Origin: a virus
Taxonomy: Duplodnaviria > Heunggongvirae > Uroviricota > Caudoviricetes
Reading direction: 5' to 3' (one strand)
Virus record (IMG/VR): IMGVR_UViG_2713896785_000020
Length of the DNA: 4,025 nucleotides
The translations under genes were made by a program, and so were the position numbers. The notes beneath the pieces were generated by a model. The model ran no database searches, had not been told where the DNA came from, and saw nothing but the letters and a program-made list of their open reading frames with translations. Within the stretch, counting starts at the first letter, position 1. Every line of letters begins with the position of its first letter. Below, piece after piece: positions 799 through 3,407 of the stretch.

Positions 799-983
799 CC
801 GGAGGGATTCTGCACCCTCAGAACATCAGGAGACCGTCTGAAAGGGCGGAACAGATAATGCTTACGTTGAAACATTTTATCGACATACCAACATGGTTAG
901 CCGTCATTGCTTTTGTTAAAATACACATCCACTTTTCTGTGCAATGTTTAACCACTGGTCATATCAAATGGCATTCATGCGAA

Positions 984-1002
984 CCATGATATAGAATCAT
1001 GG
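984..1002. repeat. inverted repeat CCATGAT-ATAGA-ATCATGG, 33 bp upstream of the 1035 start codon; possible operator overlapping a -10-like TAGAAT
   Basis: Seven-bp perfect arms (984-990 and 996-1002) around a 5-bp spacer. TAGAAT at 992-997 lies inside it. Function is inferred from position only. Confidence 0.35.
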
Positions 1003-1034
1003 CTTGAGAGAGTCGATGAAAGCGCAACTATGGT

Positions 1035-1613
1035 ATGAGAGACATTGATGTAAGAAAGGCTGTGCATGCCAAGATTCTGAGAGATCATCATAAAGATCCT
1101 GACACCCTAATCATTGATGAGTTTACGATGAATCTAGGGGCTAGCAGAGCTGATATAGCAGTGATCAATGGGCTTATACATGGTTATGAGTTGAAGAGCA
1201 AGAGTGATAACTTGCTCAGATTACCAGCGCAGGTGCAACATTACTCATCAGTGATGGATAAAGTAACTTTGGTTGTCTCTGATTGCCATCTTTATGATGC
1301 TTTAAGCATAGTTCCATCATGGTGGGGGATAAAGCAAGTTACGCAAGGTGCACGGCAAGGTATCCATTTAAAAACAATTCGAACTAGCAAGTTGAATCCA
1401 CAAGTGGACAAACTTTCCTTAACAATGCTTCTTTGGAAAGATGAATTGCTTTCCCTATTAAGTGATGTAGGGGAGCTACAGAATTTGAAAAATAAACCTA
1501 AACGCGTCTTATGGTCAAAACTCGCCAATAGTATGGATGTTGGCGAGCTTCGTGAAGCTGTTCGAGTTAAACTTAAAGCCCGTAAAGAGTGGCGAGTTGC
1601 TCAACAACCTTAG
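1035..1613 (+). CDS. PD-(D/E)xK nuclease-fold protein, sce7726-like small partner protein
   Basis: 192-codon ORF; ATG 1035 is the first start after an in-frame TGA at 1017-1019. N-terminal region shows the classic arrangement ..LIIDEF.. (E29), ..RADIAVI.. (D40), ..GYELKS.. (E52-x-K54), i.e. acidic residues on consecutive predicted strands followed by ExK. Weak Shine-Dalgarno. Family assignment is from remembered motifs, not a search. Confidence 0.7.
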   Translation: MRDIDVRKAVHAKILRDHHKDPDTLIIDEFTMNLGASRADIAVINGLIHGYELKSKSDNLLRLPAQVQHYSSVMDKVTLVVSDCHLYDALSIVPSWWGIKQVTQGARQGIHLKTIRTSKLNPQVDKLSLTMLLWKDELLSLLSDVGELQNLKNKPKRVLWSKLANSMDVGELREAVRVKLKARKEWRVAQQP

Positions 1614-2670
1614 TTATGTGATGGTTTTGCCCAATCCTACGCCATACCTCTGGGCTACCAAATTTATAGTTACCAGAGGGATTGGCTTTGTAGGCTTGAT
1701 ACTCGTTTGCATAATATTCTATGTCTCTATCTCCCGCACAGAATGTAGGCCCTGAATATTCTCGATGAGCAAGAATATCCTCACTATGTTTACCATATTG
1801 TTCATAACCAAAGCGATTAGCTACTCTTCCTCGAAATACCCAAAAGTCATTATCTCCAGAGTATCTGACGCTGGCAGATACGCTAGGGAATCGCGTCGAA
1901 AGCCTATTAAAGTCGGGGTGCTGTACTCCATAATCACTATAAATCACATTTCTGGCAAGTTCTTTTCTATTCATTAAACTCTGCCATAAAATCCACTCGA
2001 TTCGAGGTTGAGAATATAGACCAACAGAAATATCACTGAGATCTGTAGGAAATGAACCCCCAGAAAGAATCACTTTTCTGTATTCATTGAGGTGCGCCAG
2101 ATTGTTTATCAATCCCATTGCCAAAGTATATAGTTCGCCGGAATTAATTTTATCCTCGGTTAACTCATCTCTTAAGTCAATAATTATATCAATATTTGAT
2201 AAAGGAATTCCCAGATGATTAATGTAATGCGTTATTAATTGTGGGTTAACCAGATCTAACGTGGTTAATCTCAAGCATATTTCATTCTGCATTAATTCAT
2301 CAATCGCTCTTTTATAGTTAGATGGGCGAGTTGGTGAACTGACAGGAATAACTCTTATCCCCATATCTCTAACTTGATTAACCGCATTTATTATAGGGTA
2401 ATGATCTTCAGGAGAAATAAAATGCTCTTCAATTAATAATCCATCAATATAAACACCTTGCATATCTGAGCAAGATTTTGAGACTTTCTTTCCGAACTCT
2501 ATAAGAGTCTCGTTATAACTCTTTAAGGCAATACCTGAATCAGGGTCAATTGGCACTGGTTCAATTTCGAGTAATGGCAAAATTTTTGATTTCTTTTCAA
2601 TGGATAGCTGCGATAAAGCTGATAACTCAGAACGTTTCGCTTTCAGAATAGGAATATATGAAATTGTCAT
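1573..2670 (-). CDS. Beta-protein family protein (sce7725-like; as I recall, Pfam Beta_protein PF14350)
   Basis: 365-codon ORF on the minus strand. Start ATG (complement of 2668-2670) is preceded by AAGG with a 7-nt spacer. The N-terminus MTISYIPILKAKRSELSAL matches the conserved Y-x-P-I-L-K-x-K-x-x-E start I associate with Beta-protein/sce7725-type proteins. Very AT-rich coding sequence. Confidence 0.8.
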   Translation of the reverse strand: MTISYIPILKAKRSELSALSQLSIEKKSKILPLLEIEPVPIDPDSGIALKSYNETLIEFGKKVSKSCSDMQGVYIDGLLIEEHFISPEDHYPIINAVNQVRDMGIRVIPVSSPTRPSNYKRAIDELMQNEICLRLTTLDLVNPQLITHYINHLGIPLSNIDIIIDLRDELTEDKINSGELYTLAMGLINNLAHLNEYRKVILSGGSFPTDLSDISVGLYSQPRIEWILWQSLMNRKELARNVIYSDYGVQHPDFNRLSTRFPSVSASVRYSGDNDFWVFRGRVANRFGYEQYGKHSEDILAHREYSGPTFCAGDRDIEYYANEYQAYKANPSGNYKFGSPEVWRRIGQNHHITKVVEQLATLYGL

Positions 2671-3022
2671 GTTAATACCTTATACAGAATCAATTAACAA
2701 TTAATGGTTCTTCGGACATTGAAATTTATATCGCAAAAATTGGCAAACTCTCCTCGACTACTCACTTGTGGGTATCCTGGCGTAAAAGGAATGACTTGGC
2801 AATACCCGGTGTGATCATAAGTCATTGAAAATGATCATTTTTATCAGTCTTTCTTCCATGATGAATGCTAATGCCATTTGATTTGTTGAGGTGAAAACTG
2901 TTAAAAATCAAAACGATGTAATTGAAATGAACGTTCGGTAGCATTCACGCTTTAAATGTTTCTTTTGTGCTGATTGGATGAATTTGGGTCACTTATGATG
3001 AGAGATGTTGCAGGAAAAGAAG

Positions 3023-3051
3023 TTGGCATTGATCTATTGGATAGTTAGAAT
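3023..3051 (+). promoter_or_regulatory. sigma70-type promoter of the hok/mok mRNA
   Basis: -35 TTGGCA (3023-3028), 17-bp spacer, -10 TAGAAT (3046-3051). The predicted transcript start near 3058 (GGGTGCTTGAGGCTATCTGCCTC) resembles the 5' end of the plasmid R1 hok mRNA as I remember it. Confidence 0.45.
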
Positions 3052-3109
3052 TGCTGCGGGTGCTTGAGGCTATCTGCCTCAGGCATGAACACCAAAAGGC
3101 AGATAGAGA

Positions 3110-3180
3110 AAAGCCCCAGTTAACATTACGCGTCCGGCAAGACGCTTAACATTAATCTGAGGCCAATTTCATGCTTTGCA
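3110..3180 (-). ncRNA. sok: sok-like antisense RNA (antitoxin), approximate boundaries
   Basis: Minus-strand promoter-like elements at the position expected for sok: -35 TTGCCT (complement of 3209-3214), 17-bp spacer, -10 TAACCT (complement of 3186-3191). The transcript would be antisense to the mok Shine-Dalgarno/start region. The 3' end is not defined by a clear terminator, so coordinates are approximate. Confidence 0.4.
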
Positions 3181-3313
3181 CATGTAGGTTAGCCTCTTAC
3201 GTGCCGAAAGGCAAGGAGAAGCAGGCTATGAAGCAGCAAANNNNNNNNNNNNNNNNNNNNNNNNNNNNNNNNNNNNNNNNNNNNNNNNNNCAGCTTACGA
3301 ACCTGAGGAGTAA
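3171..3313 (+). CDS. mok: mok-like reading frame: in-frame N-terminal extension of hok (MLCTCRLASYVPKGKEKQA-MKQQ..), interrupted by N run
   Basis: ATG 3171 is preceded by GAGG (3156-3159) and is in frame with hok ATG 3228, with no stop between. This resembles chromosomal MokC as I recall it (MLNTCRVPLTDRKVKEKRA-MKQHKAM..). Body hidden by N run 3241-3290. Confidence 0.4.
3228..3313 (+). CDS. hok: Hok/Gef family type I toxin (HokC/HokD-like); most of the CDS is hidden by the N run
   Basis: AAGGAG at 3213-3218, then ATG 3228 reading MKQQ before the N run. After the run the frame reads ..AYEPEE then TAA (3311-3313), a Hok-family C-terminus. The surrounding leader and 3' UTR are homologous in layout to hok/sok. 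ATG-to-stop is 86 nt, not a multiple of 3, so the N run does not preserve the true length. Confidence 0.75.
3241..3290. other. run of 50 N inside hok; hidden segment is not length-preserving
   Basis: Literal n characters. The hok start and stop on either side are out of frame with each other across the run, and a Hok of about 50 aa would need roughly 120 hidden nt rather than 50. Confidence 0.9.
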
Positions 3314-3320
3314 GAGACCC

Positions 3321-3375
3321 GGCGAGGGAGAAATCCCTCGCCACCTCTGATGTGTCAGGCATCCTCAATGCACCC
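3321..3375 (+). promoter_or_regulatory. structured hok 3' UTR: perfect 9-bp hairpin plus fbi-like element complementary to the mRNA 5' end
   Basis: GGCGAGGGA (3321-3329), loop GAAA, TCCCTCGCC (3334-3342). CCTCAATGCACCC (3363-3375) is complementary to GGGTGCTTGAGG (3058-3069) with a one-nucleotide bulge, as expected for hok mRNA fold-back inhibition. Confidence 0.5.
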
Positions 3376-3381
3376 GCACTT

Positions 3382-3407
3382 AACCCGCTTCGGCGGGTTT
3401 ATTTTAT
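3382..3407 (+). terminator. intrinsic (rho-independent) terminator of the hok transcript
   Basis: AACCCGC (3382-3388), loop TTCG, GCGGGTT (3393-3399), followed by a T-rich tract TTATTTTAT. Confidence 0.7.

Follow-up and report, generated by a model that had tools for sequence, protein, structure and literature searches.

A convergent beta–cII gene pair carried as variable cargo by an Escherichia coli prophage is related to gop-beta-cII and PD-lambda-2

Introduction

What role does a pair of convergent genes, one encoding a cII / sce7726-family protein with a predicted nuclease fold and the other a large protein of the beta family, play in a lambdoid prophage of Escherichia coli? The pair occupies positions 1035-2670 of a stretch of viral DNA (IMG/VR record IMGVR_UViG_2713896785_000020; the window, 4,025 nt at its full length), and an original prediction made from the sequence alone had proposed it as a candidate defence or conflict module. 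Two known systems bear on the question: gop-beta-cII of P4, which protects against lambda and P1 (PMC9122126), and PD-lambda-2, which consists of a HigB-like component A, an Xre/M78-peptidase component B and a beta-like component C (PMC9519451). Both have been validated in E. coli, are mechanistically unexplained and are treated in the literature as unrelated toxin-antitoxin (TA)-like systems. The locus and a comparative survey of its relatives tie both systems to one beta + cII core, which also stands alone, and by sequence comparison the cassette is a minimal two-gene variant of gop-beta-cII and PD-lambda-2 without their toxin modules.

Results

Gene content of the cassette

The cassette is made up of two open reading frames (ORFs) on opposite strands, which meet at their 3′ ends:

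1035-1613, + strand: ORF1, cII / sce7726-family gene of 192 aa, with a predicted N-terminal PD-(D/E)xK domain and a three-helix C-terminal domain
1573-2670, − strand: ORF2, beta-family gene of 365 aa, modelled as a divergent TIM barrel with C-terminal helices
1573-1613, both strands: 3′-end overlap of 41 nt with antisense dual coding, cII residues 180-192 against the last 13 beta residues

The coordinates, sizes and ORF2 start given by the original prediction are exact. ORF1 matches the NCBIfam family sce7726_fam (NF033832) at 191.1 bits (E = 1.7e-56; cutoff 70), with residues 1-184 of 192 covered, and is also matched by the PADLOC model “cll”, which represents P4 cII (2.4e-28). Pfam PF26915 (Phage_P4_cII) is carried by ORF1 homologues at 99% identity and below, and P4 cII itself aligns to ORF1 at 28% identity (tblastn, E = 1e-15). 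The PADLOC names were checked on the P4 proteins, where gop, beta and cII match the models gop, beta and cll at 4.8e-70, 8.2e-188 and 3.2e-113, respectively; RefSeq labels P4 cII a “sce7726 family protein” and P4 beta a “beta family protein”. The family is large, with 5,438 clusters recovered at E ≤ 1e-3 in a profile search of 1.84 billion cluster representatives.

The nuclease reading of ORF1 had been drawn from the motifs IIDEF (E29), RADIAVI (D40) and GYELKS (E52, K54), all of which are found in the protein with their codons at 1119, 1152, 1188 and 1194, and the modelled fold agrees with it. The PD-(D/E)xK domain spans approximately residues 1-125 and contains E29, D40, E52-x-K54 and Q66-xxx-Y70; its model has the alpha-beta-beta-beta-alpha-beta core of this fold, with an acidic residue in beta2 and the (D/E)xK motif in beta3, and its closest structure is 3dnx (SPO1766). 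All 86 diverse homologues compared, P4 cII among them, retain E29, D40, E52 and K54, and the C-terminal three-helix domain terminates in a conserved LKxRxxWR motif. As modelled, ORF1 is a PD-(D/E)xK-fold protein with an intact, invariant E-D-ExK (+QxxxY) site and a putative nuclease. The original prediction had named small sce7726-type proteins as the usual gene partners of the Beta-protein family; ORF1 is itself this sce7726 protein and no additional nuclease, which makes the pair a beta + cII pair.

ORF2, which begins MTISYIPILKAKRSELSAL, matches Pfam Beta_protein (PF14350) at 178.3 bits (E = 3.8e-52; cutoff 27) over residues 5-356 and profile positions 1-341 of 342. The PADLOC model PD-Lambda-2_C (PDLC03983) covers residues 4-362 (E = 1.8e-41), the PADLOC model “beta” matches weakly (2e-4), and P4 beta shares 23% identity with ORF2 (E = 8e-8). 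The threshold of NCBIfam sce7725 (NF033831) is not reached (12.3 bits against a cutoff of 60), with the N-terminal 35 residues alone aligning, so that the earlier assignment to the Beta-protein family stands while its sce7725-type label falls away. The pair had also been described as assignable to no named system, a statement that the PADLOC matches of ORF1 to “cll” and of ORF2 to PD-Lambda-2_C and “beta” overturn. With profile scores far above cutoffs, ORF1 and ORF2 are, on this evidence, genuine genes and not chance ORFs.

The ORF2 model is a divergent TIM barrel, and no solved structure is closely related to it. Charged residues conserved in beta lie mostly at strand ends (E15, D76, R134, D165, R223, D246 and H351), and with these acidic and basic positions the modelled barrel looks like that of an enzyme. 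Comparison with DpdA/TGT revealed no specific similarity past the generic barrel fold. PDB sequence and profile searches with ORF1 and ORF2 returned chance-level matches only, and in a PHROGs search both proteins fall in families of unknown function.

Distribution and arrangement of the pair

In order to compare the cassette with its relatives, 80 genome loci and 80 viral contigs were collected, all seeded on the cII-like protein; the genome loci come from Pseudomonadota, Myxococcota, Acidobacteriota, Bacillota, Actinomycetota, Chloroflexota, the Candidate Phyla Radiation (CPR) and Melainabacteria. A convergent beta gene lies beside cII in 77 of the 80 genome loci and 79 of the 80 viral loci (156/160). 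The four loci without one comprise two with less than 200 nt downstream of cII and a single Xenorhabdus contig retrieved from both collections. Among the sampled loci, only this contig, from Xenorhabdus koppenhoeferi, lacks any detectable beta although its cII-like gene is intact and over 2.8 kb of sequence is available downstream. Pairwise identities of cII and beta co-vary (Mantel r 0.81, a value reached by 0 of 999 permutations), with beta diverging faster (mean identity 31% vs 43% for cII); by these measures the two genes are inherited as a unit.

The 3′ overlap measures 11-158 nt in 75 of 77 genome pairs and is present in nearly all viral pairs. Its length is 2 mod 3 in all 159 overlapping pairs, corresponding to a single antisense phase, and the cII W186 and beta H351 codons stand exactly 30 nt apart in 68 of 80 loci, the remainder being mostly shifted by a multiple of 3. 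This fixed spacing means that the conserved C-terminal motifs of both proteins are encoded on opposite strands of the same DNA, and by its phase and spacing the dual-coding overlap is ancient and inherited across phyla. The same layout is annotated on Rhizobium, Rhodococcus and Bacillus plasmids and in Gordonia phages, with P4 as an exception, having a longer cII and a terminator between the genes.

A terminator scan of the window found none between or after the two genes. cII is co-oriented with the early-right operon of the prophage and beta is antisense to it; without a terminator between the genes, their transcripts must collide and pair antisense, and a regulatory role for this collision is plausible from the arrangement. 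Expression signals on the two sides of the pair are as follows:

968-997, + strand: putative own promoter of the cII-like gene, ATGGCA-18-TAGAAT with a TGnTATA extended −10-like element (consensus scan)
2671-3045, − strand: cargo-specific leader 5′ of beta, in which the ribosome-binding site alone is conserved (alignment of 10 homologous upstream regions)

The TG-TATA columns, approximately 45 nt upstream of the cII ATG, are invariant in 10 enterobacterial homologues, with TGnTATA of the window at about 987-997; from this conservation cII probably has its own promoter.

Partner modules around beta and cII

In PD-lambda-2, component B is toxic and is neutralised by A, and C is needed for defence and not for neutralisation (PMC9519451), while in P4 Beta has been reported to neutralise Gop (PMC9519451, PMC9122126). 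Counterparts of these toxin modules vary among the surveyed loci. A PD-Lambda-2_B protein is encoded directly 5′ of beta in at least 14 of 76 genome loci (E down to 1.8e-150), a count that is a lower bound as some ORFs of approximately 400 aa upstream of beta in high-GC genomes are unclassified. The other 62 of 76 have no PD-lambda-2B-like gene upstream of beta, and this bare form is the commonest sampled architecture. All four loci seeded on B read (HigB)-M78 peptidase-Beta_protein with a convergent, overlapping Phage_P4_cII gene, as does locus L004, and the 14 or more genome loci with a B-like gene have this cII too. These observations suggest cII as a conserved fourth gene that is missing from current PD-lambda-2 definitions. 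The published PD-lambda-2 clone extends 387-396 nt past its outer genes, too short for a complete cII, so beta worked there without an intact cII. When the native E. coli PD-lambda-2 locus was sought for cII, no E. coli member was found among the top protein matches and no enterobacterial plasmid matched.

None of these toxin modules accompanies the cassette. Searches for gop or HigB/Xre-peptidase genes found none in the window or in the 20 kb to the left and right of it, no gop was detected in the window or the 44-kb locus with P4 gop as the query (tblastn), and a PD-lambda-2B-like hidden Markov model that matches other loci does not match the window. No ORF lies upstream of beta on its strand within 250 nt. 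Beyond P4, gop was found in none of 168 loci (phmmer). As the toxin modules are variable among loci and absent here, beta and cII form the shared core and the cassette is the bare core.

Genes directly 5′ of beta at other loci encode an FRG-domain protein (L083), a 161-aa membrane/coiled-coil protein (L058) and proteins of approximately 230 aa with no Pfam match (L053, L082); the 161-aa protein has a Gop-like organisation (transmembrane segment plus coiled coil) and a sequence unlike that of Gop. The architectures together suggest a family of interchangeable partner modules around the beta–cII core. A more distant clade of Xre + beta without recognisable cII is found on a Pseudosulfitobacter plasmid (L007, 4004-5756) and on related Sulfitobacter and Roseovarius plasmids, where an unrelated 215-aa convergent gene is followed by UvrD-helicase and AAA ATPase genes; the 215-aa gene may be an analogous substitute for the nuclease partner.

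The pair is also found in Gordonia, Mycobacterium, Myxococcus and Bacillus phages and on plasmids of several phyla. Elsewhere it lies near an integrase, a restriction-modification (R-M) system or CRISPR, and on plasmids and at chromosomal sites outside prophages it is located beside TA, abortive-infection (Abi), reverse transcriptase (RT), R-M and CRISPR genes. In a Wohlfahrtiimonas chitiniclastica prophage (8001-10340), the pair is directly downstream of the CI repressor gene with beta co-oriented with CI, the position of rexAB in lambda, and a type I-F CRISPR-Cas system is encoded approximately 4 kb away. The position after CI is consistent with expression in the lysogen.

Prophage setting

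The window is identical, outside two runs of N, to positions 5223761-5227993 of the E. coli 2013C-3264 chromosome (NZ_CP027544.1). Each run is 50 N long (699-748 and 3241-3290), and the window is shorter than the chromosome by 208 nt, of which 138 nt are at the first run and 70 nt at the second; the first falls within a small hypothetical gene and the second hides part of hokD. According to the source-record annotation, the carrier is a lambdoid prophage integrated beside mtfA/tRNA-Ser, in which a replication module (YdaT, DUF977 and two small genes) lies on one side of the cassette and hokD/sok, DUF968, RusA and the Q antiterminator lie on the other. Features around the pair are:

850-3045, both strands: whole variable cargo (blastn against prophages carrying other cargo)
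3058-3233, + strand: sok RNA (Rfam, 119.8 bits; gathering score 59)
about 3228-3383: hokD (source-record annotation)
309-563 and 556-798, + strand: small prophage genes, phrog_4030 and phrog_1372, which co-travel with the DUF977 gene and lie outside the cargo

Homology to prophages with other cargo stops at 849 and restarts at 3046 (blastn), which delimits a cargo of approximately 2.2 kb with exactly two genes. A third gene or RNA was sought in it: Rfam finds sok alone, and small ORFs at 2694-2944 on the − strand are not conserved. In other strains the same slot holds an alpha/beta hydrolase, a DUF5677 protein, relBE + ydfV + flxA (K-12 Qin) or small nin-like genes. Of 5426 complete E. coli genomes, 93 carry the pair, with both ORFs intact and at least 97.9% identity, and 4787 have the hokD flank. 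The mobile-element-like setting that the original prediction had read from the sequence is borne out by this variable slot, and by its distribution the pair is moron-like or hotspot cargo, unlike a core gene.

Two other parts of that description also agree with the data: the two-ORF block is AT-rich, with 33-43% GC vs approximately 50% in the left flank, and a hok/sok module is its neighbour, with the sok RNA scored by Rfam and hokD annotated. The hok/sok locus is a complete type I TA locus and lies outside the cargo, in the conserved backbone of the prophage, given that homology to other prophages starts again at 3046. The product of one of the small prophage genes at 309-563 and 556-798 is an 84-aa protein whose two cysteine pairs, C6/C16 and C69/C72, may make up a zinc ribbon.

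Insertions are found in the cargo of two swine isolates of E. coli. In PEC240, IS1 at 2078-2085 splits beta at approximately codon 195 and leaves cII intact and identical, and beta is truncated or frameshifted at several further loci where cII is intact. In CAU16175, an independent IS1 lies at 888-896, approximately 140 nt upstream of cII at the left cargo edge.

Discussion

What the pair does for its host is suggested mainly by its relatives. We propose that the cassette is prophage-borne accessory cargo acting as an anti-phage module, through superinfection exclusion or abortive infection, with beta as the sensor or licenser and cII as the nuclease effector; argued by analogy, this proposal is in our judgement evenly poised. 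The cassette would be expressed in the lysogen, where antisense transcripts would probably hold both genes at low, mutually dependent levels. Beta would sense a sign of infection, in analogy to the triggering of gop-beta-cII cell killing by the phage accessory protein orf184 (bioRxiv 10.1101/2023.04.06.535777), and would then license the cII nuclease, which would cut DNA so that phage replication is halted or the infected cell is killed. In the larger relatives the same beta would be wired to other effectors, the Gop membrane toxin or HigB/Xre-peptidase. Beta is assigned the sensing or licensing role on account of its faster evolution, its requirement for defence in PD-lambda-2 and its links to several alternative effectors; cII is assigned the effector role here as the sole other protein in the cassette.

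Several points weigh against this proposal. The validated relatives, gop-beta-cII and PD-lambda-2, each include a further toxic component that the cassette lacks, so beta and cII by themselves may give no protection. We infer the roles of beta and cII from relative evolutionary rates and analogy, and these roles may be reversed, or cII may be a DNA-binding regulator, as its historical P4 name would have it; the role of cII in the P4 system was not dissected by Rousset et al. (PMC9122126). The loci were retrieved through cII, so that the rates of beta loss and cII loss are not comparable.

Four other explanations were weighed, each of which is less likely than the anti-phage proposal. The pair could be a TA or addiction module in which a cII nuclease toxin is held by a beta antitoxin and stabilises the prophage beside hok/sok, and the description of Beta as a neutraliser of Gop, the TA-like character of PD-lambda-2, the adjoining second addiction module (hok/sok) and the presence of relBE in the same slot of K-12 Qin are all in keeping with it. 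However, the split beta beside an intact, identical cII in PEC240 and the several other loci with a broken beta argue against cII being a free-standing toxin restrained by beta, although expression or compensating changes may confound the PEC240 case. Known proteic antitoxins also do not resemble a TIM barrel of 365 aa that bears conserved residues of catalytic type, and C is unneeded for toxin neutralisation in PD-lambda-2, which leaves an addiction role unlikely. The same broken-beta, intact-cII loci weaken the idea that the pair resembles an R-M system, with the TIM barrel modifying DNA or the nucleotide pool (e.g. by base exchange, as in TGT/DpdA) and cII cutting unmodified or modified foreign DNA. 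As the cargo holds no methyltransferase and beta has no specific DpdA/TGT likeness, no recognisable DNA-modifying enzyme is present, and we consider such a pairing quite improbable.

The cassette could instead serve the life cycle of the prophage itself, with cII as a recombination or repair exonuclease or a lysogeny regulator and beta as an accessory enzyme in replication, recombination or the lysis-lysogeny decision. D...ExK...QxxxY is a RecB-like motif set, and cII carries it; a Gordonia phage homologue is annotated “exonuclease”, other homologues are named “MmcB-like DNA repair protein” in one source and “regulatory protein” in others, and cII has the replication genes on one side and nin/RusA on the other and points in the same direction as the early-right operon. 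This role is nonetheless improbable, as most closely related prophages lack the cassette and carry unrelated cargo at the slot, the cassette resides on plasmids and at non-prophage chromosomal sites beside TA, Abi, RT, R-M and CRISPR genes, and homologous systems were validated as anti-phage from plasmid clones, outside any phage life cycle. Finally, a non-functional remnant, that is, passive cargo left by a larger system that lost its toxin module (gop, or HigB + Xre-peptidase), would account for the further components of both validated relatives and for their absence within 20 kb on either side. Against such decay, the bare pair is the most frequent form (no PD-lambda-2B-like gene in 62 of 76 genome loci, and gop in P4 only), 93 E. 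coli genomes keep both ORFs intact at 97.9% identity or more, the catalytic residues are invariant and the dual-coding overlap is kept across phyla, so that a remnant appears decidedly improbable.

In the literature searched, we found no description of beta + cII as a core common to gop-beta-cII and PD-lambda-2-type loci, of a beta–cII core widespread alone, of cII as a modelled PD-(D/E)xK nuclease or beta as a modelled TIM barrel, or of an ancient, fixed-phase dual-coding 3′ overlap of the two genes. The reach of the question is broad: the cII family comprises approximately 5,400 clusters at 50% identity in many phyla, phages and plasmids, and the minimal pair offers the simplest setting for studying the function of the beta TIM barrel and a possible effector role of cII. 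The overlap is an unusually old case of overlapping convergent genes and a tractable one for regulation by convergent transcription. A bolder possibility, which we consider doubtful, is that beta–cII is an ancestral autonomous immune core to which gop and HigB/Xre-peptidase were later added, with the TIM-barrel beta as a new enzymatic infection sensor or a signal- or modification-producing enzyme controlling a RecB-like nuclease, and with the phylum-spanning overlap functioning as a toggle, based on transcription collision or antisense, that would fix the ratio of beta to cII and change state upon infection or induction of the prophage. Should the pair have no activity of its own, it would be ordinary cargo of a prophage, with kinship to known systems.

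Comparison with known systems

The RecB/Cas4-type and MmcB-like PD-(D/E)xK nucleases (3dnx, SPO1766) have in common with the ORF1 model the core fold, the D in beta2, the ExK in beta3 and the QxxxY helix. ORF1 shows no sequence-level relationship to any solved structure, adds the three-helix C-terminal domain and has no helicase or Fe-S module. Relative to the sce7725/sce7726 pairs (NF033831/NF033832), ORF1 is a full-length sce7726 member encoded beside a beta-superfamily protein, as the family annotation describes, whereas ORF2 belongs to the “beta family” branch, under the sce7725 threshold.

With gop-beta-cII, listed by DefenseFinder/PADLOC as “gop_beta_cll”, the cassette shares homologues of two of its three components, cII and beta, and their convergent arrangement (beta-> <-cII), and both occupy a mobile-element hotspot in E. 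coli. The cassette differs in that gop is absent, ORF2 is nearer to PD-Lambda-2_C than to the P4 beta model (1.8e-41 vs 2e-4), and ORF1 has 192 aa where P4 cII has 264 aa with an extra C-terminal extension of approximately 80 aa. The P4 genes do not overlap and have a terminator between them, whereas those of the cassette overlap by 41 nt, and the carrier is a P4-like satellite in one case and a lambdoid prophage in the other. With respect to PD-lambda-2, the cassette lacks component A (HigB-like) and component B (Xre-HTH/M78 peptidase) and contains cII, which the published system does not list as a component, while component C is matched over its full length by ORF2.

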